Source of the DNA: an uncultured Nitrososphaerota archaeon | GTDB taxonomy: Archaea; Asgardarchaeota; Njordarchaeia; Njordarchaeales; Panguiarchaeaceae | Length of the DNA stretch: 16,139 bases | NCBI GenBank assembly: GCA_964636085.1 | Contig: CAZWPQ010000012.1 | Location: 41,727-57,865 of the forward strand | Direction of reading: 5' to 3' | In this document: piece by piece, positions 241 through 15,557 of the stretch | Numbering within the stretch: the first letter of the stretch is position 1 | How the letters are laid out: each line of letters starts with the position of its first letter | Program-made: the position numbers and the translations under genes | Notes under the pieces: generated by a model | Databases searched by the model: none | Seen by the model: the letters and a program-made list of their open reading frames with translations, nothing else | Told to the model about the DNA's origin: nothing

Positions 241-362
241 GATATTAGACTCCTACTTTTTTATATTCTTTGCTAGTAGAAACATCCGTTACATTCTTAT
301 CAACCAAGATTTTTTAATTTCATTTCCTCATTATTATAATACCCCCGATCTGGGTGGAGTCC

Positions 363-3300
363 ATGCAGAGGGTCATAATGGCCTCGATCTGCCTTGTCGC
401 TATACTGGTAATCTCATCACTATCAAGTGGGATGGATCTTTCACTTATGCTTAATAATGAACAAAGCAAGGCACAGATTAGAGATATATCAGGCCCAATA
501 CCGTTTTTGAGTAATGAGTACAATAGACTAAATTTCGACGGACTACCGGGAATATTTGTAAGAACAGGAAACATAGGTCTATTACACATATCTATCAAAC
601 CTAGGGGGGTAACAAGGCAGACGAGAGAATGGACTTTCATGGTATATCTCGACGCGGCAAATAACCTAGAGCCATACGGTATTGAAGATTTCCTTGAGAT
701 GTCATCCGTCGGTTCATCATCAGAGGTAGCCATAATAGTTTTAATGGATAGAATAGCGGGCTATGATAGTTCCTATGATGACTGGACAGACACGAGGATA
801 TTTTATGTGGATCCAGGAGAGGGCCCAAATGCTACGAATGCTGATGAGATCTGGGGCGAGAAAAATATGGGCGACCCCCAGACTTTAGTAGATTTTGTAG
901 CTTGGTGCATCAGTAACTATCCTGCTAACCATTATGCATTGATACTCTGGGATCATGGAGGGGGTCTAAGTGGGGTATGTTGGGACGACGACGATGGGGG
1001 CGACAATATAAACCTTTATGAACTCAGAAATGCCCTCGAGACAATATATAATAACTTGGGCATAGTCATAGACATAATAGGGTTTGACGCATGCCTCATG
1101 GGAATGATCGAGGTGGCATATCAATGTAGGAACTACGTAAACTATGTGGTGTTCTCCCAGGAAACTGAGGGTGCAGATGGTTGGCCATATGGCGACATCC
1201 TTGGCCCACTGGTTGCGAACCCAACAATGTCGCCGGCGGATTTTGCTGTGCTTATCGCCCAGAAATACGTTGAGTCTTATAATGGTGGTAGCCAGGGGAC
1301 GGATACGTCTGCTACTCAGTCTGCGATAAACATGTCTGCCCTCACAACGGTGACGTTTAGGAAGCTGGATAGGCTTGTCGGGGAACTCATTAGGAATTAT
1401 GATTCGCTATCGACGGCTATTAGCAATGCTGTGAGTGGGGCAGAAGCATTCTATTATGACGAGGAGAAGGATCTGATACATTTCTTGGAATTGTTAAAGG
1501 GAGAGGTATCCGATCCAAATCTCATTAGTCTTATCGATGAGACCATAGATTCTGTGAATGCATCGATAATGTATGGTGGTCATCTATCCGGACACCCTAA
1601 TGCGTATGGACTATCCGCATACTTCCCATCAGGCTACTATGATGATTATGATGGTGTATTAATGTCTATACATCATCAGTGGGATGAATTTACTAAGAAA
1701 AGGACGGGGAATTCTGTAGATCTCTGGTTTTATGATATAGCCTTTACGGGGTCGGATTCTGATAATAACGGCTATTACGACTCTGGAGTGATATATGTTG
1801 ACTTGGACTCCGATACTGCGTTCGACTTGTTTGTAAGAGTGTATGGGTACGATGGGGTAGATGAGTATCCAATGGGGGAGTCCAGCATAGTTACGGTTAG
1901 TGGAAATGTGTCTAGCGATGTAGTGACCATAGATCTAGAAATGCCTCCGTATAGTGGAATATTCACCATGAGGTTTGAAGTATGTAATTCCTCTGGTAGT
2001 GTAATCAAGCAACTATATTATTACTGTGACGATGATGTATCGGATCTTCCGCTTGAATATCTCCCGGGCTATCCGAAGGTCAGGATAGTGGCTCCAGTCC
2101 CAAATACTCCCGTCTACAACACCGTATTATTGAGGGTCAATGCTAGTGATGAAGATGGAATCTCATGGGTAAAGGTTAAAATAGGAGATACATGGTATTC
2201 GATGACATATAATGCGACCTCTGGGTATTTTGAATACTTGTGGAATACCACTCTCCATGACGATGGTTGGTTCCAGATAATCGTTAATGCTTCGGATACT
2301 GGTGGCAATATAACAAGCACATCAGCGAAATACCTTATAGACAACATAATAATCAGTATACTTTCTCCCAAAAATGGAGATAGAATAAGGAACCGAACAC
2401 AGGTAGTGGTAAATGTTACATTAAGAACATCCATAGTGTCCATTGATAGGGTTACAATGCAACTGAGAAATTATACCTTTAATGGGTCTCTCATACAGCT
2501 ACAATATAATGTGACATCCGGATATTATGAGGGCGAGATAAATACCACGGAGTATAGTGATGGGGTCTATGAAATATATGTCTTTGCCAATCATACCAAT
2601 GGAGGAAGGGATCGCACGAAAATATCAGTGTACATAGACAATGTGATAGCACCAATATTAATTGTGGATGATGACGGTGGGGATTCCTACGAGGAATACT
2701 ACATACAGGCATTAGAGGACATAGGATTTATCCGAGATAAAGACTTTGAATTGTGGAGTGTGATCGCGGACGGTCAGGTAACATCAGATACTCTCTATGG
2801 AAGAAGTGTAGTGATATGGTTTACAGGGGATGATTACTCTAGTACCCTAACAACTAATGATAGGACTGTACTGGCGGAATACTTGGATAATGGGGGTAGC
2901 CTATTTATCTCTGGTCAGGACATAGGATATGACATCTACGATGAGGATGCCATATGGTATGAGACGTATCTTAAAGCCATCTATGAGGCTGATGATACAG
3001 ATGTGGATAATGTGGTTGGGCTTGAGGGAACTATTTTCGAGGGAGTTCAATACTACCTAACTGGTGGGGATGGTGCTAGTAACAACAATTATCCATCTGA
3101 CATTGCCCCAACAGGTGGCTCGATTCTCTCCCTATGTTATGGTGGTGATACAAATCTTGGTGCAGCAGTAACGTATGATGGGACATATAGACTCGTATAT
3201 TTTGCGTTTCCCTTCGAAGCTATAAATAGTGCTACAGATAGATCCGAGTGCATGCTAAAGATATTGGCATTTCTAATGGGTGTGGGGGGATATCCCTCAG

Positions 3301-5117
3301 TAGAATTTATGGAGCCTGAAAATGGTGACGTATTAACTGGAGAAATAACTGTCCGTGTGAACGCGACGGATGAAGATGGATACATTACCATGGTTTCTCT
3401 CTATGTTGATGATATATACTACTGTAACATGACATATAATGCGTCTGATGGGTATTGGTATGCAGAATTAAACGCATCAACACTAGCTTTTGGCGAACAT
3501 AAATTAACTGCAAGGGCAACTGATAATGATGGATTAATAGCCGTAGCCACAATAATAATATACACTAAACAGACCTCAACCTATATTCTAATAGTTGACG
3601 ATGACGGCGGCGCTAATTATGAGACCCTTTACATAGAGTCTCTAGAGAATCTCGGATTCGTGATTGGCCAAGATTTTGATGTCTGGTGCTATTCCACAGA
3701 GGGCGAATTGAGCGCAAAGCTACTATTAGAATACACAGTAGTGATATGGTTTACAGGGGATGACTACTCCTCCACATTATTGTCCAGCGATAGAGAGGCA
3801 TTGGCGCAATATCTCGATGCAGGTGGTAGCCTATTTATCTCTGGTCAGGACATAGGATTCGACATCTATTATGAGGATACCACGTGGTATGAGACGTATC
3901 TCAAGGCCATATATGAGGCTGATGATACAGATGTGGATAATGTGGTTGGGCTTGAGGGAACTATTTTCGAGGGAGTTCAATACTACCTAACTGGTGGGGA
4001 TGGTGCTAGTAACAACAATTATCCATCTGACATTGCCCCAACAGGTGGATCGACGCTTGCGTTGTGTTATGGAGGAGATTCGTCCTTGGGTGCAGCGGTG
4101 GTATATGATGGTACATATAGGTTGGTTTACTTTGCTTTCCCATTTGAAGCGATAAACAAGGCTGATGATAGAAAAGAGTGTATGGGGATAGTCCTAGGAT
4201 TTTTGATAATTGGTTATCCCTTAGAGCCACCAGAAGTGTTGGACTATGCACCGCATGAATTATATCTAGAAGTTCCAAGCGGCACCGAGCTGTACTTTGA
4301 AATATCAGTAGACAAGATAGCAAATATAACTTGGCTAGTTAACGGTACTGTTATGAGGGATGACATGAATGTAAATGCATCGTTCCTAGAAGCGATACTT
4401 GATCCCGGCCTGTGGAACATCACAGTTGTCGCATCCAACAGATATGGTTATACATCGATATCATGGACGATTAGAATATGCATACCGCTCGAGATTGTTG
4501 AATTTTACCCGACACAGCATGACATAAGGGTTCCAGAAAACACATCGGTTATATTTCGGGTGGAGTTTAACCAAAAAGCAAACATAACTTGGTACATAAA
4601 TTCCTCTGAAGCAATGACGGTAGATCAGACACGATTTTCTGAATTCAACACTACTCTAGGCTTTGGGACATGGAACATTACAGTGGTTGGTATCAATGAG
4701 AATGGTTCTGAGTACAAATCATGGATTGTTTTGGTATACAAGCAATTGGAGATACTAGAATATAGTCCCGAACAGTTGAGCATAGAAACTATGGAGGATA
4801 CAGAAGTAACATTTCAAGTAAGATTCAACCAACCAGTTGATGCAATATGGTACATTAATGGGACGGTCAAAAGGGTGGATGAAAACATAATAATTACTAA
4901 TCTCACAACAACATTCGAGGCGGGTATATGGAACATAACTATTGTGGGTAGCAATGAGAATGGCTCTGCGAGTATTTCATGGATTGTCAAGGTAAGTAGC
5001 AAGGGGCATCAAATCCCCACCTTTATATTCGCACTTGCCTTGGTGCTCGTAGCCGCGATAATAATATCTGTCCTGCTAATAACCCATAGGAGAAAGGAAT
5101 ACGAGGGGATTGAGTGA
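363..5117 (+). CDS. Secreted, C-terminally membrane-anchored clostripain-family (peptidase C11) cysteine protease with Ig-like and duplicated alpha/beta accessory domains
   Basis: Signal peptide-like N-terminus. C11 motifs WTFMVYLDAANNL, NMGDPQTL, LILWDHGGG (His codon 954-956), IGFDACLMG (Cys codon 1092-1094) and SQETE. These are followed by Big/Ig-like domains, two ILIVDDDGG domains, three 86-aa beta repeats, a TM helix and an RRKE tail. ATG at 363 follows GGGTGGAG (352-359); GTG at 354 is the alternative start. Confidence 0.9.
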   Translation: MQRVIMASICLVAILVISSLSSGMDLSLMLNNEQSKAQIRDISGPIPFLSNEYNRLNFDGLPGIFVRTGNIGLLHISIKPRGVTRQTREWTFMVYLDAANNLEPYGIEDFLEMSSVGSSSEVAIIVLMDRIAGYDSSYDDWTDTRIFYVDPGEGPNATNADEIWGEKNMGDPQTLVDFVAWCISNYPANHYALILWDHGGGLSGVCWDDDDGGDNINLYELRNALETIYNNLGIVIDIIGFDACLMGMIEVAYQCRNYVNYVVFSQETEGADGWPYGDILGPLVANPTMSPADFAVLIAQKYVESYNGGSQGTDTSATQSAINMSALTTVTFRKLDRLVGELIRNYDSLSTAISNAVSGAEAFYYDEEKDLIHFLELLKGEVSDPNLISLIDETIDSVNASIMYGGHLSGHPNAYGLSAYFPSGYYDDYDGVLMSIHHQWDEFTKKRTGNSVDLWFYDIAFTGSDSDNNGYYDSGVIYVDLDSDTAFDLFVRVYGYDGVDEYPMGESSIVTVSGNVSSDVVTIDLEMPPYSGIFTMRFEVCNSSGSVIKQLYYYCDDDVSDLPLEYLPGYPKVRIVAPVPNTPVYNTVLLRVNASDEDGISWVKVKIGDTWYSMTYNATSGYFEYLWNTTLHDDGWFQIIVNASDTGGNITSTSAKYLIDNIIISILSPKNGDRIRNRTQVVVNVTLRTSIVSIDRVTMQLRNYTFNGSLIQLQYNVTSGYYEGEINTTEYSDGVYEIYVFANHTNGGRDRTKISVYIDNVIAPILIVDDDGGDSYEEYYIQALEDIGFIRDKDFELWSVIADGQVTSDTLYGRSVVIWFTGDDYSSTLTTNDRTVLAEYLDNGGSLFISGQDIGYDIYDEDAIWYETYLKAIYEADDTDVDNVVGLEGTIFEGVQYYLTGGDGASNNNYPSDIAPTGGSILSLCYGGDTNLGAAVTYDGTYRLVYFAFPFEAINSATDRSECMLKILAFLMGVGGYPSVEFMEPENGDVLTGEITVRVNATDEDGYITMVSLYVDDIYYCNMTYNASDGYWYAELNASTLAFGEHKLTARATDNDGLIAVATIIIYTKQTSTYILIVDDDGGANYETLYIESLENLGFVIGQDFDVWCYSTEGELSAKLLLEYTVVIWFTGDDYSSTLLSSDREALAQYLDAGGSLFISGQDIGFDIYYEDTTWYETYLKAIYEADDTDVDNVVGLEGTIFEGVQYYLTGGDGASNNNYPSDIAPTGGSTLALCYGGDSSLGAAVVYDGTYRLVYFAFPFEAINKADDRKECMGIVLGFLIIGYPLEPPEVLDYAPHELYLEVPSGTELYFEISVDKIANITWLVNGTVMRDDMNVNASFLEAILDPGLWNITVVASNRYGYTSISWTIRICIPLEIVEFYPTQHDIRVPENTSVIFRVEFNQKANITWYINSSEAMTVDQTRFSEFNTTLGFGTWNITVVGINENGSEYKSWIVLVYKQLEILEYSPEQLSIETMEDTEVTFQVRFNQPVDAIWYINGTVKRVDENIIITNLTTTFEAGIWNITIVGSNENGSASISWIVKVSSKGHQIPTFIFALALVLVAAIIISVLLITHRRKEYEGIE
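2655..4205 (+). repeat. Intragenic domain duplication at a 930-bp offset (copies ~2655-3275 and ~3585-4205), with a 137-bp perfect core (2982-3118 = 3912-4048)
   Basis: Aligned by eye. Identical blocks are 2808-2833/3738-3763, 2895-2928/3825-3858 and 2982-3118/3912-4048. The copies are separated by one Ig-like domain. Confidence 0.95.
4227..4995 (+). repeat. Three tandem 86-aa (258-bp) PKD/Ig-like protein repeats
   Basis: Repeat motif E(V/I)..(Y/F).P ... F...F/V ... W..N ... G.WNIT(V/I)V..N..G....SW. The Glu codons fall at 4233, 4491 and 4749. Confidence 0.85.
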
Positions 5118-5198: not shown

Positions 5199-5402
5199 TT
5201 GTCCACCACAATAAGGGTTTCAAAGCGTCTTGTCGAGGCTCTAGAGGAAGAGAAGAAACTAATGGGTGCCCGTTCAATAGAAGAGGTTATATTAAATTTG
5301 CTGAGAGAGAAGAGGAAAAGGCTGGCTGAAAAATATTTCGGTATCGATAAGGATAGAATCTCTAGCTTTTCTGAGGAGGACAGACTTGATTCTCGTATTT
5401 GA
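5199..5402 (+). CDS. vapB: VapB-type antitoxin (ribbon-helix-helix-like)
   Basis: 67 aa; N-terminal beta strand TTIRVS followed by two helices (SIEEVILNLL); GGTGA RBS; overlaps the downstream PIN gene. Confidence 0.8.
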   Translation: MSTTIRVSKRLVEALEEEKKLMGARSIEEVILNLLREKRKRLAEKYFGIDKDRISSFSEEDRLDSRI

Positions 5403-5796
5403 CTCTTATGCATGGATCGAATACTTTGCGGGAACAGAAAAAGGAATTATTGTTAAGGATCTCATCGAGAAGGCGGATATTATCTATACCCCCACAGTGG
5501 TGTTGCTAGAAATTGCAAACAAGTACTCCAGAGATGGGTTCAGTCAGAATATAATAAGTGAGCGTCTCCGCATAATACGCGAGATTTCCATTATTGACCG
5601 CATAAGAGATGAAGTACTTTTACTCCTCAGGGAAGCACAGATAGCACTAAACGAGAATGCGAGAAGACTAAATCTGAAAAAGAAACCAAGCATGATCGAT
5701 TATTATATCTACGCCCTAGCAAAAAATTTAAATGCTAGAGTAGTCACTGGAGATCAACATTTTAAAGGACTAAACATCACGATATACCTAGAATAA
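5386..5796 (+). CDS. vapC: VapC PIN-domain ribonuclease toxin
   Basis: LVFDSYAWIEYF ... PTVVLLEI ... SMIDYYIYALA ... VVTGDQHF; all four acidic PIN positions are present. Confidence 0.9.
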   Translation: MILVFDSYAWIEYFAGTEKGIIVKDLIEKADIIYTPTVVLLEIANKYSRDGFSQNIISERLRIIREISIIDRIRDEVLLLLREAQIALNENARRLNLKKKPSMIDYYIYALAKNLNARVVTGDQHFKGLNITIYLE

Positions 5797-5912
5797 CCAC
5801 AATAAGGATTTTCCAGGAGCAACATATTTAATCCAGAGTACGTAGATTTTTTACATGCTTTGACTCTTATAACCGTGCAAAAACATATTAAAATTAGTTT
5901 GAAGTGAGATGT

Positions 5913-7952
5913 ATGAGAGGGGTATTCATAGTAGTCCTACTGTTGCTTGTGGCCTCATGGGGATCCATCGTTAAGCATAGAAATATGTCTTCTGTATGGA
6001 GGGTAAATATAGATAGTGACGAGGTCAATGATGGTTATGTCCATAGCAGGGCGGGGGAAAGTATAATCCTTTTTGTAAACCCAGATTCCGCATTCGAGGC
6101 AATAAATAAGACGATTTCTGGCGCAACATCGTCATTAGACATAATGGTATATGAGATGTGGAGTCTAGATTTTTTTGACATTATTAGTAGTGTTGCCAGC
6201 AGAGGAGTTAAGTGTAGAATTCTGCTGGAAGGCGATCCCTATGGTGATTTAGGAGATTCTTGGAATAGAAATATGGCCTCAATGCTATATGATCTAAATA
6301 CATCTGGTTTGCCAGTATGGATTAGACTTGAGAATACGGATATCCTAGTCCACGCAAAGATGATGATAGTAGATCGCTCCGTAGTAATCCTAGGGAGTGA
6401 GAACTATTTTCCTACATCATATCCTCCTAATACAGACAACATAACCTGTCAGCCATATACAAGGCCAAGTAGGGGCTGGGGAGCAATAATTTACAATAGT
6501 ACGTTCGCCAGGATTTGTGAATCAATATTCGAAGACATATTTCTTAATGACTCCAGAAGCGTAGATTATGACCCATTGGTACACGGTACAGGTACGGCTC
6601 CAGATGAGAATGGAAACTGTTCCATTCCAAAGAGCTTTGATACGACACGAATATATGATTATAGAATATCCCTTGTTTATTCTCCCGTGAATTCATATGA
6701 TACCATTAAATGGCTTATAGATCACGCCAATCACACCATCTTTATAGAGACAATGTATATTAATAATAGTTCATACTATGTTCAAGACCTAATAAATAGG
6801 CTCAAGTCGGCAGTTAATCGTGGTGTCACGGTTCAATTGATATTGGAGGATGATACAAATGTGACGGGAAACTATAGTATGATGGCACCATATCTGAATA
6901 GTCTGGGCATTCATGTTGTCCCAGCGTTCAGTCTGGATGAAGGGATCTTTCTCCATAATAAGGGAATTATTGTTGATGATGAGTATGTCGTAGTGGGTTC
7001 AATTAATTGGTCGGGAGCCTCTCTAACATTAAATACGGAAGTAGGTATACTTATTAGATCTAGAGAGGCAGCATTGTTCTTTAAGGAAGTCTTTGAGTAT
7101 GATTGGAACAAGAGTACAAACAATGTATTTGATACGGATGGCGATGGTCTGAGCGACATATTTGAAATAGAACACAATACGGATCCCTATAAGATCGACA
7201 CAGATGGCGATGGCGTTGATGATTATGGAGAGGTATTTGTGTATGGCACGGACCCCGCAAGGGCTGATGTTATTATTGCTTCTATAATCAGCCCAAATGA
7301 AAATGCATATATCTCAAGTACAGATGTAGAAATAAGATGGGAAATCACACATATAGAATTTGTAACAGGCATAGAAGTCAGGGTTGATTCCAACACCATA
7401 TCCAGTTTATCCCCCGACATAAATTCGTACGTCCTCCATCTATCCGATCAAGCAACACATATTGTGGAAATAATACCTAAAACAAGCACTGGATTCAGTG
7501 TCATATCTGCGAGAGCATATTTGCATATCGATACCCAAGCTCCAGAAGTAACAATAATAAGCCCCAAAAATAATACTAATATCAAAGATATACAATTTAC
7601 ATTAACCGCAAATATACATGATTTCTCTCCCACACAACTAGTGGTAAAACTCAACGGCACGACAATATACCTCGAAAACAGAACCGATACGGATTACAGC
7701 ATATCAATACCAATAACGGTATACAAGAAGGGGACATACCTTATAGATATTGAGGTAGAAGATAAGGCAGGAAACAAAACTAAAAAAACACTAATAATAC
7801 ACATAACCCAATCAGAAACAACACCAACAACCACACAAGCACAGGGAAACATATGGGGCAAGGAAGTACCCATAGAAGTTTTTGTAGGGCTAATAATAAT
7901 CATTATACTCGTAGGATTGGCCGTAATAATCATTTACACCAAAAAATCCTGA
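5913..7952 (+). CDS. Secreted, membrane-anchored phospholipase D-superfamily protein (two HKD motifs) with DxDxDG Ca-binding repeats and Ig-like domains
   Basis: HAKMMIVD (6351-6374) followed by GSEN, and HNKGIIVD (6954-6977) followed by GSINWS. N-terminal signal sequence, DTDGDG repeats (7131-7268), two Ig-like domains, Thr-rich linker, TM helix and KKS tail. ATG 5913 is preferred; GTG 5904 is the alternative. Confidence 0.9.
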   Translation: MRGVFIVVLLLLVASWGSIVKHRNMSSVWRVNIDSDEVNDGYVHSRAGESIILFVNPDSAFEAINKTISGATSSLDIMVYEMWSLDFFDIISSVASRGVKCRILLEGDPYGDLGDSWNRNMASMLYDLNTSGLPVWIRLENTDILVHAKMMIVDRSVVILGSENYFPTSYPPNTDNITCQPYTRPSRGWGAIIYNSTFARICESIFEDIFLNDSRSVDYDPLVHGTGTAPDENGNCSIPKSFDTTRIYDYRISLVYSPVNSYDTIKWLIDHANHTIFIETMYINNSSYYVQDLINRLKSAVNRGVTVQLILEDDTNVTGNYSMMAPYLNSLGIHVVPAFSLDEGIFLHNKGIIVDDEYVVVGSINWSGASLTLNTEVGILIRSREAALFFKEVFEYDWNKSTNNVFDTDGDGLSDIFEIEHNTDPYKIDTDGDGVDDYGEVFVYGTDPARADVIIASIISPNENAYISSTDVEIRWEITHIEFVTGIEVRVDSNTISSLSPDINSYVLHLSDQATHIVEIIPKTSTGFSVISARAYLHIDTQAPEVTIISPKNNTNIKDIQFTLTANIHDFSPTQLVVKLNGTTIYLENRTDTDYSISIPITVYKKGTYLIDIEVEDKAGNKTKKTLIIHITQSETTPTTTQAQGNIWGKEVPIEVFVGLIIIIILVGLAVIIIYTKKS

Positions 7953-13029: not shown

Positions 13030-13155
13030 ACAGAATCCTAGTGAAAAATAAATTTCTCATAGATAGTTCTTGACATTTTTGTATAAAATTTCTATTCCAA
13101 TTTACTAGTATTTTTGTGGAAAGAAAAAATTATTGGGAATTGGAGGGCCGACATA

Positions 13156-14016
13156 ATGCTTGTTGTGTTTTTGGGTTTGGACAAGGCGGGAAAGACATCA
13201 ATCAAGGTTTATCTTGAAACATTAGATACGGAGAAAGCCAGAAACACTAGGATGAGTAATGGTGTAGAGGCGTATCAGAGGGGTGATGTAAAGTTTGAGG
13301 TTTTTCCGGGACAGTTTGTTCTCAGGATGAATGAGCGTCTTTATGAGGTGTTTTTCCCACATACACACAAGATTGTTTTTACCGTTGATGCGGCCGATAA
13401 AAAGAGGTTTAGTGCCGTGAAGGAATACTGGAGATTTGTCAAGAGGATGATCGAGAAATATTGTGATAGGACACCAAATATCATACTTCTTGCCCATAAG
13501 CAAGACCTAGACGATGCCGTCTCCCCCGCCGAGTTGGAGAAAATAATATTTGACAAGGAGGACTTTTCTAACTACAGCATAGAGACCATAGGTACAAGCA
13601 TTTATGACCCCCTAAGCATGTCTCTACTATTACGTACTATCCATGGGGCCTCTAAGATTGGGATAGAACAGATAGTAGACACATTGAGGGAAAAAACTGG
13701 TAGTGATGTTGCTTTTCTATATGATTCCCATCTATTACCAATAGCGGTCAGCACGAGTGGTAGAGATTCGGAGATAATTACACTAATAAATGACTTAATA
13801 ATCTCCATTGAGAAGATAGGAGAATTGACCATGTTTGCAGGATACTTCAAGGGAAATAGAAACATAGTTGCTGTGAGCGAAAAAATTGGTGAGGATAGGA
13901 TTCTTGTGGGAGTATTTAACTTTAGGGTAAAGCTCAAAGAGGCGCTGGATCTGTGTATGGGTGTGCATAAGCATTACATATCAGAGCTTAGGAGGAGAAT
14001 GTGGGGGGGATGGTAG
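13156..14016 (+). CDS. Rag-like small GTPase with C-terminal roadblock-like domain
   Basis: G1 GLDKAGKTS (13174-13200), G3-like EVFPGQ (13297-13314), G4 HKQD (13495-13506), G5 TSIYD (13594-13608). The ~115-aa C-terminal domain has a helix-beta-beta-helix-beta-beta-beta-helix pattern, starting IEQIVDTLREKTGSDVAFLYD. GGAGG at 13142-13146 supports ATG 13156 over TTG 13114. Confidence 0.85.
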   Translation: MLVVFLGLDKAGKTSIKVYLETLDTEKARNTRMSNGVEAYQRGDVKFEVFPGQFVLRMNERLYEVFFPHTHKIVFTVDAADKKRFSAVKEYWRFVKRMIEKYCDRTPNIILLAHKQDLDDAVSPAELEKIIFDKEDFSNYSIETIGTSIYDPLSMSLLLRTIHGASKIGIEQIVDTLREKTGSDVAFLYDSHLLPIAVSTSGRDSEIITLINDLIISIEKIGELTMFAGYFKGNRNIVAVSEKIGEDRILVGVFNFRVKLKEALDLCMGVHKHYISELRRRMWGGW

Positions 14017-14750
14017 GAATCCTATACACTCTAGCCATAGGCATACTGGGCATAGTAACGGGAATATTAATAGTGCTTGTGTTGTATCTCCTAATTCAGA
14101 AACTAAATCGAAAAAACAGGCTTGCTGAAAGATTAAAAAGACTGTATAGAGAAGGGCCAAAAGTAGAGAAAAGAGTGATAATTTTGGACCCCTATACTAT
14201 TCTCAGGCTTTCTGAGAGCTGGGTAATGGAATCAGACTTATTGGAGCCTGAGCAGGTTTATGCGCTTGAGAGGGTAGGATTTGCGAAAAAAATAGGAAAC
14301 ATTATAATTGCAAATATCGATGCTATAGGGGCCTACATTAATCGTATCAGAAATATACAATTACCTCGCTCGGATACTATTGTGACAGACTATAATGATA
14401 GGCTGGCGGCATATGGAATAATCAGTATAACATTTTTTGGTGTGGATAGTCAGATAGGGCCAGTTTTCAAGTACACTACCGCACTGACCAAGTTGACTAG
14501 GAGGCTTATGGAAGATCAAGAAACCCGGGATAACCTATTCATATTATCTGGCAGAGTAGACGAGCTTATATTGGAGGGATCACGAGTACTTATTCATGAG
14601 ATCAGCGGTGGAGAGAGAGGAATAGAGGGCTATGTAATTGTTGAATTATCCAAGGATGCTGATATAGAAAAAGTGAAAACAAGAATCGCAAGAATAGATA
14701 AAATTCCCTCGTCTACGGAGGAGACAAGGAAATACCTAGAAAAACTATGA
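14001..14750 (+). CDS. Single-pass membrane protein with C-terminal uDENN/longin-like domain
   Basis: N-terminal TM helix followed by a basic segment (positive-inside rule puts the C-terminus in the cytoplasm). The domain from ~14412 starts IISITFFGVDSQIGPVFKY and has an ERG loop at 14613-14621. Overlaps the GTPase stop; GGAGG at 13991-13995; start is GTG 14001 or ATG 14010. The CDS is secure; the fold is inferred. Confidence 0.65.
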   Translation: MGGMVGILYTLAIGILGIVTGILIVLVLYLLIQKLNRKNRLAERLKRLYREGPKVEKRVIILDPYTILRLSESWVMESDLLEPEQVYALERVGFAKKIGNIIIANIDAIGAYINRIRNIQLPRSDTIVTDYNDRLAAYGIISITFFGVDSQIGPVFKYTTALTKLTRRLMEDQETRDNLFILSGRVDELILEGSRVLIHEISGGERGIEGYVIVELSKDADIEKVKTRIARIDKIPSSTEETRKYLEKL

Positions 14751-14803
14751 CAACGGGAGAGGGGTAGGAAAAATATTCCGACCATTTATTTTTATATGGT
14801 TAA

Positions 14804-14832: not shown

Positions 14833-15090
14833 TTGGCTAGAAAGACAACTATAATGCTTGACGATGATATATACATCAAATTAGTGAATATAAGCATCAA
14901 GAAGTATGGGTCTGCAAGACATCTATCGAAAGTTATAAACGATCTTCTATCAGAAGTCCTAAGAAGACCGAAAAGTAAAATTCCAATGGACGAATTGAGA
15001 GAACTACTCTCTGGCCCAAGCCTTGCAGAGGTTACACCCGAGGAATTTGAGGAATTTCGTAAAGACCTTTCAAAAAGGTTTGAATCATGA
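14833..15090 (+). CDS. vapB: VapB-type antitoxin (ribbon-helix-helix)
   Basis: RKTTIMLDDDIY ... LSKVINDLL pattern, acidic C-terminus, ATGA overlap with the PIN gene. Confidence 0.82.
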   Translation: MARKTTIMLDDDIYIKLVNISIKKYGSARHLSKVINDLLSEVLRRPKSKIPMDELRELLSGPSLAEVTPEEFEEFRKDLSKRFES

Positions 15091-15557
15091 TTATCGATAC
15101 TACTTACTTGCTACCTTTAGCGAAAATAAATATTCCAACTAATCTTTTTAATGCAATTCTACAGAAAAAAGTAGACATCAGTATATACGATTTATCCACA
15201 AGCCTTATATCGATCTTCGAGCTCCAAGCAAAAGCAGCAAAATTGGGAATCCCGCATAAATATGTTTCGAAGGCTATAAGATTCATAATGAAATACTTGA
15301 ATGTAATTGATTTTTGGGATGAAGTCATAATAAATATTAGCTTTGATCTACGAAAAATACTACCCGACTACATTGACTGCGTAATAGTCGCAACAGCAAT
15401 AAAATGTGGAGATGTGCTTCTAACAGAGGACTCCAGAATCCACAAAGCCAAAAAGCATATCCACAAAAGCTACGGGATAAAAATAATGGATTATAATCAA
15501 CTTTTAAAAGAACGCCGGCAATACTGGACAAAACCAAACAAAGAACATGAAAAATAG
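15087..15557 (+). CDS. vapC: VapC PIN-domain ribonuclease toxin
   Basis: MIIDTTYLLP ... ISIFEL ... DYIDCVIVATA ... LLTED; acidic residues intact. Confidence 0.9.
   Translation: MIIDTTYLLPLAKINIPTNLFNAILQKKVDISIYDLSTSLISIFELQAKAAKLGIPHKYVSKAIRFIMKYLNVIDFWDEVIINISFDLRKILPDYIDCVIVATAIKCGDVLLTEDSRIHKAKKHIHKSYGIKIMDYNQLLKERRQYWTKPNKEHEK

Follow-up and report, generated by a model that had tools for sequence, protein, structure and literature searches.

Rag-like GTPases are numerous in Asgard archaea, as are longin and roadblock proteins, but which of these regulators serves which GTPase is mostly unsettled. The same question is raised by two overlapping genes in a 16,139-nucleotide stretch of DNA (the window; contig CAZWPQ010000012.1 of GenBank assembly GCA_964636085.1, positions 41,727 to 57,865, forward strand) from an uncultured Asgard archaeon of hydrothermal vents: does the small GTPase encoded by gene 1 have a regulator of its own in the membrane protein encoded by gene 2? 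The initial annotation had read the pair as a minimal Rag module, in which a RagC/D-like GTPase is coupled to a membrane-anchored, folliculin-like longin protein. Here we establish the folds and motifs of the two proteins and the evolutionary linkage of their genes, and on balance we favour a reading in which a GTPase of Rag architecture would be served by a dedicated membrane partner, its tether and perhaps its GTPase-activating protein (GAP). The two genes and their putative start signals are as follows.

13156–14016, + strand: gene 1 (P0001), Rag-architecture small GTPase of 286 residues; ATG start, stop codon TAG at 14014–14016 (open reading frame listing and translation)
14001–14750, + strand: gene 2 (P0002), membrane-anchored winged-helix and longin protein of 249 residues; GTG start at 14001, in-frame ATG at 14010
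13142–13146, + strand: GGAGG, putative ribosome-binding site of gene 1, 9 nt upstream of its ATG (read from the sequence)
13991–13995, + strand: GGAGG, putative ribosome-binding site of gene 2, inside the 3' end of gene 1, at a distance of 5 nt from the GTG and 14 nt from the ATG

The overlap between the two genes measures 16 nt, and an identical 16-nt overlap is found in an orthologous metagenome contig (L003). Gene 1 divides into two domains.

13156–13650, + strand: G domain of gene 1, residues ~1–165; P-loop GLDKAGKT, G3 VFPGQ, G4 HKQD, G5 TSIYD
13663–14007, + strand: roadblock-type C-terminal domain of gene 1, residues 170–284; secondary structure (DSSP) a-b-b-a-b-b-b-a, aligned within the full-length Rag/Gtr matches

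The AlphaFold model of gene 1 (predicted local distance difference test, pLDDT, 86; built on 12 homologues) consists of a G domain followed by a domain of roadblock order, in keeping with the GTPase plus roadblock-like domain of the initial annotation. In Foldseek its best full-length matches are RagA, RagC, Gtr1, Gtr2 and the Asgard protein LokiRagO, labelled 'RagA-like' (E 1e-15 to 1e-11, TM-score 0.59–0.69), with LokiRagO reaching the top TM-score (0.67–0.69); Arf proteins align with the G domain only, not with the full length. Eleven full-length homologues were found at 37–71% identity, six of which carry a precomputed match to PF04670. The same genome encodes a paralogue, on contig C1, that links gene 1 to the Rag family in sequence: the two share 34% identity over 211 residues (E 1e-21), and the paralogue scores 52.7 bits against Pfam Gtr1_RagA, above the threshold, and matches LokiRagO by sequence at E 1.5e-6. 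Aligned via this paralogue, the HKQD and TSIYD of gene 1 correspond to AHKQD and NTSIY in the paralogue and to HKFD and NTTIYD in LokiRagO. Because of the full-length fold matches and this alignment, gene 1 is Rag-like in architecture and in its G4 and G5 motifs. A search of the PDB by sequence with residues 104–286 returned noise only and no Rag, so that for the C-terminal domain it is the fold, and not the sequence, that supports a Rag reading.

Across the alignment of the gene 1 family (A2, 12 members) the motifs GLDxAGK(S/T), PGQ, HKQD and T-x-I-x-D are invariant, as is Gln53 of G3. The canonical DxxGQ is absent: the Asp position holds Val or Ile in 12/12 members. In gene 1 this residue is Val49 (window 13300–13302), which aligns, via the C1 paralogue, with the Asp of DLGGQ in LokiRagO, and the replacement extends to the C1 paralogue itself. 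At 13255–13257 an invariant Ser (Ser34) stands where Rag-type spacing places the switch I Thr. Read from sequence, Val49 and Ser34 together suggest unusual Mg and nucleotide handling in this family. Since the protein starts straight at strand 1, it has no Arf-type N-terminal amphipathic helix, and it contains no transmembrane or hydrophobic segment. At its other end, a basic, Trp-containing tail (RRRMWGGW, window 13993–14013) has its codons where gene 1 runs into the start of gene 2; Y274 and W283 are invariant there and R279 is present in at least 90% of members, in a part of the model that is disordered (pLDDT <50). The tail could contact the membrane or the partner.

Gene 2 contains an anchor and two folded domains, the second of which carries a putative catalytic site.

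14013–14096, + strand: N-terminal transmembrane helix of gene 2, residues ~5–32; hydropathy peak 2.88 at residues 13–31
14175–14360, + strand: winged-helix-like domain of gene 2, residues 59–120; small, acidic to neutral
14415–14747, + strand: longin domain of gene 2, residues 139–249; secondary structure (DSSP) b-b-a-b-b-b-a-a
14457–14462, + strand: GP motif, Gly153-Pro154, in the loop between strands 140–149 and 153–159, ahead of longin strand 2
14616–14618, + strand: Arg206 (GGERG), candidate arginine finger, in the hairpin loop of strands 4 and 5

Sequence searches with gene 2 returned no Pfam family (E up to 1), no NCBIfam family and no PDB match, and a word-indexed homologue search recovered only the protein itself; an exhaustive search of 1.84 billion representatives yielded 11 relatives. 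Its model, built on 13 sequences, is nonetheless confident (pLDDT 87.6) and together with hydropathy and structural matches bears out the anchor, linker domain and longin fold that had been predicted, the linker modelling as a winged-helix-like domain. The N-terminal helix starts at residue 2 in the model and is followed by a basic juxtamembrane stretch (residues 33–58, net charge +8). Because this stretch follows the helix, and because immunoglobulin (Ig) repeats lie N-terminal of the helix in a fused homologue described below, we place the C-terminus in the cytoplasm; the best explanation of these sequence features is a single-pass protein with ~4 residues outside and a cytoplasmic winged-helix and longin module. 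The winged helix matches SarS/MarR-type domains in the structural comparison VIA (Z 6.1–6.2, root-mean-square deviation, rmsd, 2.4–2.6 over 56–62 residues). Its net charge ranges from -5 to +2 across the family, and from this charge a DNA-binding role was judged unlikely.

The longin domain runs through strands 140–149 and 153–159, helix 164–182, strands 188–191, 194–202 and 208–216, and helices 222–229 and 239–248. Its best match in VIA, which is independent of Foldseek, is the AP2 mu longin (Z 8.8, rmsd 2.5, 94 residues aligned), followed by AP sigma, COPI, Vamp7, Sec22 and sedlin, with AP sigma, Vamp7, Sec22, sedlin and chains of the FLCN complex and C9orf72-SMCR8 at Z 6.8–8.2; the individual values for chains of GAP complexes are the FLCN complex (6nzd_H, Z 7.0), the SEA complex (8adl_S, Z 7.0) and C9orf72-SMCR8 (Z 6.9). 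Local Foldseek matches include SEA/GATOR1 chains (probability 0.96–1.00) and DENND10 (1.00). We call the fold a longin because the Z-scores, the strand order and the consistency of the match list agree. Gene 2 ends with this domain and has no C-terminal DENN or NPRL2-type domain.

A GP motif before longin strand 2, adjoining the arginine finger, has been described as specific to the GAP longins FLCN, NPRL2, SMCR8 and C9orf72; adaptin, TRAPP and DENND longins lack it, and a class of Asgard longins has it (PMC12290439, 2025). Judged by its sequence, the longin of gene 2 carries the combination of GP motif and loop arginine described there. In the alignment of the gene 2 family (A1), G153 is invariant, and R206 accompanies GP in 8/8 sequences, while all five sequences with GL in place of GP have a shortened loop and no Arg. 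In a wider alignment of 38 non-identical relatives from fetched loci, the GP motif and the loop Arg were likewise kept or lost together. Both occur in partners of the window type, in an Ig-fused type, in a polytopic type (where the loop reads 'HGR'), in most members of a sister family and in most short stand-alone longins.

The two genes are also linked in evolution. We counted as a full-length partner any gene for the transmembrane helix, winged helix and longin found at E<1e-60, and only where its flanks could be read. By this definition 12/12 partner genes adjoin a same-strand GTPase of the A2 family, in the window's own genome (paralogous pairs counted on contigs C12 and C35), four congeners and four metagenome contigs. 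Chance adjacency of the two genes is ruled out by these 12/12 conserved pairings and by the fusions described below. Over 15 non-redundant pairs, the identity matrices of GTPase and partner correlate at r=0.81, a value reached by 0/5000 permutations; as kin are not independent, what this count shows is that the two were co-duplicated as one unit, and it should not be read as a probability. The sequences thus indicate that the gene pair has duplicated and diverged as a unit, with the partners evolving faster (47% identity for the partner against 71% for the GTPase in the closest orthologue).

In some relatives the longin module is the tail of a larger membrane protein. In the Ig-fused form (two loci) it ends Ig-repeat proteins of 1563 and 1776 residues, encoded directly upstream of the GTPase. 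The first of these (P0023, 1563 residues) has a signal-peptide-like N-terminus, many Big_13 and Big_7 domains, a transmembrane helix at 1332–1350 and then the module, a layout that fixes the topology as outside, transmembrane, inside. In the polytopic form (two loci) the module ends a protein of ~540 residues encoded directly downstream of the GTPase; at one of these loci, in the window's own genome (L009:1411-3033; G000:C5:85831-87453), the 540-residue protein has ~6–7 transmembrane segments and the 'HGR' loop, follows an A2 GTPase and matches no Pfam family. At a further locus from another family (L042), genes for a surface protein, a partner and a GTPase are consecutive. A profile search for longer fused forms found none, a weak negative as long proteins crowd the word index.

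Another pair of this type in the window's own genome lies in an operon on contig C35 (L059:114-3135; G000:C35:13013-16034) that encodes a GTPase, a 238-residue partner without GP or Arg, a 300-residue protein and a 169-residue protein. The last is secreted or transmembrane and carries a 'YTFEELG' motif; neither it nor the 300-residue protein has a significant Pfam family, and similar motifs are found again in proteins encoded next to partner genes in L039, L016 and L042. In a sister family (f4), partner homologues of 300–342 residues stand directly after large Ig-like surface proteins (L017, L018, L019, L021), which end in a transmembrane helix and an Arg-rich tail, with no GTPase within 1.5 kb.

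The C1 paralogue belongs to a pair of a different kind (L058:379-2130; G000:C1:74878-76629, minus strand), in which a 329-residue GTPase is directly followed by a soluble protein of 253 residues (P0030). A GP-motif longin forms the start of P0030, whose neighbours in the ESM Atlas belong to the NPR2, Folliculin and uDENN families (TM-score 0.46–0.55); aligned against the gene 2 family with hhalign, P0030 showed no relation (probability 0.6%). This GTPase/P0030 adjacency holds in 8/8 loci, across three families of the order, and the view that Rag-like GTPases of this order are hard-wired to GP-type longins is thereby strengthened.

The complex modelling that the initial annotation had suggested lent weak support to binding. 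Full-length gene 1 and residues 55–249 of gene 2 were modelled with GTP and Mg, with a separate alignment for each protein, and scored 0.37 against 0.00 for the best control. The mark for this score is reached by 58/80 solved complexes and 2/110 mismatched pairs; seven of the 80 solved complexes and both mismatches lie at the mark but no higher than 0.60. At least 88% of contacts agree between the runs, and the pLDDT of the partner is at least 84.

We postulate that gene 2 binds the soluble gene 1 protein, which we consider very likely, and that it would thereby hold the GTPase on the cytoplasmic side of the cell membrane, a tethering role that is probable. Gene 2 would also regulate the nucleotide cycle of gene 1. 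The mode of regulation that we favour is GTPase activation, in which gene 2 would contribute Arg206, beside the GP motif, in trans to Gln53 of gene 1 in the manner of FLCN, NPRL2 and SMCR8; we put forward this GAP activity tentatively. The sister copies suggest a general logic in which a membrane or surface protein with a longin tail would control a Rag-like switch.

Several observations weigh against this reading or limit it. For gene 1, Pfam gives Arf 63 bits, SRPRB 33.6 bits and Gtr1_RagA (PF04670) 21.9 bits against a cut-off of 22.0, and its PDB sequence matches are Arf, Sar or Arl without exception. The absence of the Walker-B Asp (Val49) may make its nucleotide cycle unusual. The RagC/D subtype of the initial annotation is not established, given these Pfam scores, the Val in G3, and the fact that RagA chains score at least as well: in Foldseek matches to Rag heterodimer entries the longer chains, taken as RagA, reach 1.2e-15, compared with 4e-11 to 2e-10 for the shorter ones. 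FPGQ is a possible mark of RagC.

For gene 2, no match to the Folliculin, NPR2 or SMCR8 Pfam profiles was found at E up to 1, and the longins of AP complexes and SNAREs, which are not GAPs, match it at equal or better Z than FLCN or NPRL2. Z-scores of 7–8.8 are themselves middling and within reach of unrelated common folds. As a statement of family membership, the label folliculin-like is not supported, given the Pfam result, the missing DENN domain and the ranking of the AP and SNARE longins. The correspondence of R206 to FLCN R164 or NPRL2 R78 is putative, based on loop topology and not on a superposition.

With regard to the pairing, the C35-type clade has GL, a shortened loop and no Arg and is still paired with a GTPase; GAP chemistry is therefore not needed for pairing. 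Nine of 24 assessable GTPase family members have no such partner as a neighbour, six of the nine in one subfamily. The f4 homologues have no adjacent GTPase and stand next to transmembrane-anchored surface proteins; it may be with such proteins that the longin module is primarily associated. One of the three complex runs scored only 0.08, and the score is given without an interface. Lastly, the sequencing runs listed as carrying this DNA are all of DNA, with labels of hydrothermal vent or sediment metagenome, and there is no RNA run among them.

The alternative that survives best, which we nevertheless hold to be unlikely, is that the partner serves as an exchange factor or as a platform without catalysis, which anchors or activates the GTPase and is not a GAP. 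Its longin could pair with the roadblock of the GTPase, as in Ragulator-Rag and in Rag heterodimers, or it could be a guanine nucleotide exchange factor (GEF), as are TRAPP, Mon1-Ccz1 and DENN proteins. Roadblock folds indeed match the longin domain of gene 2 in VIA (Z 6.6–7.5, rmsd 3.7–4.1), the C35-type partners stay paired without either residue, and longin regulators are mostly GEFs or platforms according to PMC12290439 and PMC3747258. What this alternative accounts for less well is that the GP motif and the loop Arg co-vary and are kept in very diverged relatives, including short stand-alone longins, which points to a functional site and not to a scaffold alone; moreover, the GP motif is reported absent from non-GAP longins (PMC12290439).

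A second alternative, which we regard as decidedly improbable, takes the pair as a switch like MglA/MglB or a conservon, acting in polarity, motility or envelope signalling, with the likeness to Rag and FLCN reflecting a shared ancient fold only. The G3 of MglA is TxxGQ, without Asp like that of gene 1, and the narrow distribution of the pair and the association of the module with surface proteins would also fit. Operons of a GTPase and a roadblock-superfamily protein are old and widespread, as PMC9481161 and PMC13408092 describe for MglA/MglB. Against this, gene 1 has a roadblock domain of its own and a full-length Rag/Gtr match, and its C1 paralogue passes the Gtr1_RagA threshold at 52.7 bits; the bb-a-bbb-aa order of the partner is that of a longin, not of a roadblock, and the GP motif is present.

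Least credible, to the point that we give it hardly any weight, is the view of gene 2 as a regulator of the IclR/GAF-sensor type, tethered to the membrane and acting on DNA or a ligand without contact to the GTPase: its best Foldseek E-values are indeed to IclR-type regulators (2e-4) and its ESM Atlas neighbours, all weak (TM-score 0.27–0.39), include GAF, PAS, IclR and GerE proteins besides small Asgard proteins, but the IclR matches have TM-scores of 0.20–0.26 and an rmsd of 12–17 Å and are not global, no HTH_IclR or IclR_C Pfam match exists, the winged helix has an acidic to neutral charge, the strands follow longin order, and gene 2 co-diversifies with the GTPase.

Among known systems, the nearest counterpart of a Rag-architecture GTPase with a dedicated membrane partner is the eukaryotic Rag/Gtr system with its longin GAPs (FLCN-FNIP for RagC/D; GATOR1, NPRL2-NPRL3-DEPDC5, for RagA/B) and Ragulator/EGO. 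Gene 1 shares with Rag/Gtr a C-terminal roadblock, G4 HKxD, G5 TSIYD and the lack of a membrane anchor of its own, and the partner shares with the Rag/Gtr GAPs a longin with GP motif and loop arginine. The differences are equally clear. Here tether and regulator would be one protein. A transmembrane helix followed by a folded winged helix and longin contrasts with the lipidated, extended LAMTOR1/Ego1 that wraps roadblock dimers, making gene 2 an analogue of Ragulator/EGO at most. Unlike FLCN and NPRL2, gene 2 lacks a DENN or NPRL2 C-domain and has no known second longin subunit, and unlike Rag, gene 1 has a G domain that scores as Arf by sequence and a Val for the G3 Asp. There is no TOR kinase context, the membrane is the cell membrane of a prokaryote, and the family is confined to one Asgard order.

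Closer in lineage are the Asgard Rag-like GTPases LokiRagO (8yl2) and LokiRagM (9m28/8zla), which have the same GTPase-roadblock architecture (Tran et al. 2024, PMC10933270); unlike gene 1, LokiRagO keeps the canonical DxxGQ. The same study reports that in MK-D1 the genes for GTPases do not, as a rule, share operons with roadblock or longin genes, whereas GTPase-longin pairing is the rule here. Asgard GP-motif longins of the FLCN/SMCR8 type (PMC12290439) and NPRL2-like longins (10.1101/2020.10.19.343400) likewise combine a longin with GP and arginine, and PMC12290439 asks which GTPases, ArfR or Rag/Gtr, the former act on. Those longins are described as soluble or sensor-fused, with no GTPase assigned, in contrast to the transmembrane anchor, winged-helix spacer and fixed GTPase neighbour of gene 2. 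Liu et al. (10.1101/2020.10.19.343400) described a conserved Asgard operon of a LAMTOR1-like roadblock protein, a Rab-like GTPase and a DENN protein, which they read as an FLCN-like module. That operon too encodes a small GTPase with roadblock/longin-superfamily regulators, but it has three genes, its GTPase is Rab-like (the authors stress that it is not Rag) and its regulator has no membrane anchor. Finally, MglA-MglB and the conservon (CvnA-D) resemble the pair as prokaryotic small GTPases that share an operon with a regulator of the roadblock superfamily. MglB and CvnB, however, are roadblock proteins that supply no arginine in trans, their GTPases lack a roadblock domain, and the actinobacterial conservon includes a membrane sensor, which is a histidine kinase.

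GTPase-roadblock fusions, NPRL2- and FLCN-like longins and the operon of roadblock, Rab-like and DENN genes have thus already been described in Asgard archaea; a literature search found no description of a transmembrane-anchored winged-helix and longin family fixed beside a Rag-architecture GTPase. As to origin, the partner family and the GTPase family (at E<=1e-40) each occur in two genera among 400 genomes of the phylum, those of the partner belonging to one order. One gene 1 homologue is labelled Njordarchaeota by NCBI, and we regard the host as a Njordarchaeales-like Asgard archaeon. Because of this narrow distribution, the proposal that the pair is a precursor of the Rag-Ragulator-FLCN/GATOR1 system is unsupported, while the alternative offered with it, an analogue, stands: the evidence supports a lineage-specific analogue or side branch built from homologous parts, an ancestral role not being demonstrated.

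A bolder idea, and one that we think quite improbable, is that the paralogous pairs jointly form a hetero-oligomeric, membrane-embedded proto-Rag machine that would pass surface events to a GTPase switch. The window-type and C35-type GTPases (54–66% identical) would dimerise through their roadblocks like RagA/RagC; the partner with GP and Arg would be catalytic and the GL, Arg-less partner non-catalytic, like FLCN/FNIP or NPRL2/NPRL3; and variants fused to Ig repeats or polytopic segments would relay surface events across the membrane. If true, this would constitute a receptor-coupled small-GTPase pathway in an archaeon.

The surroundings of the pair bear out the AT-rich gaps described in the initial annotation. 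Spacers of 126 nt upstream and 82 nt downstream separate them from their neighbours, with a GC content of ~0.34 in windows over the upstream spacer and 0.35–0.38 over the downstream spacer, compared with ~0.37–0.43 inside the genes. One further feature lies in the downstream spacer.

14782–14799, + strand: T-rich inverted repeat 3' of gene 2 (sequence only)

This repeat is likely to mark the end of the transcript of the pair. The upstream neighbour is a class-II glutamine amidotransferase and the downstream one a PIN gene with a companion resembling ribbon-helix-helix (RHH) proteins, both unrelated to the pair; genes 1 and 2 look like a self-contained two-gene unit. The window is part of contig C12 of a 2.4-Mb genome that is 83% complete. 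It contains two PIN-domain genes, one at 5386–5796 and the other in the region 14833–15557. The second is preceded by an overlapping gene of 85 residues that has no Pfam hit and is RHH-like by eye; a toxin-antitoxin pair may thus follow gene 2 directly. Upstream of the GTPase pair the window also encodes two large probable surface proteins. The one at 354–5117 (1587 residues) combines a Peptidase_C11 domain of clostripain type with Big_7 Ig domains, and the one at 5904–7952 (682 residues) has Ig domains, PLD-like domains and a TSP3 repeat.

For Asgard archaea, then, the genome itself supplies a match between regulator and GTPase, in the form of a Rag-shaped GTPase fixed beside a longin with GP motif and arginine that is likely its membrane anchor. 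Nature also provides partner variants with and without the candidate catalytic residues. Because both proteins are small (286 residues for gene 1, ~195 for the soluble part of gene 2), the question of which regulator serves which GTPase becomes directly testable in this lineage.

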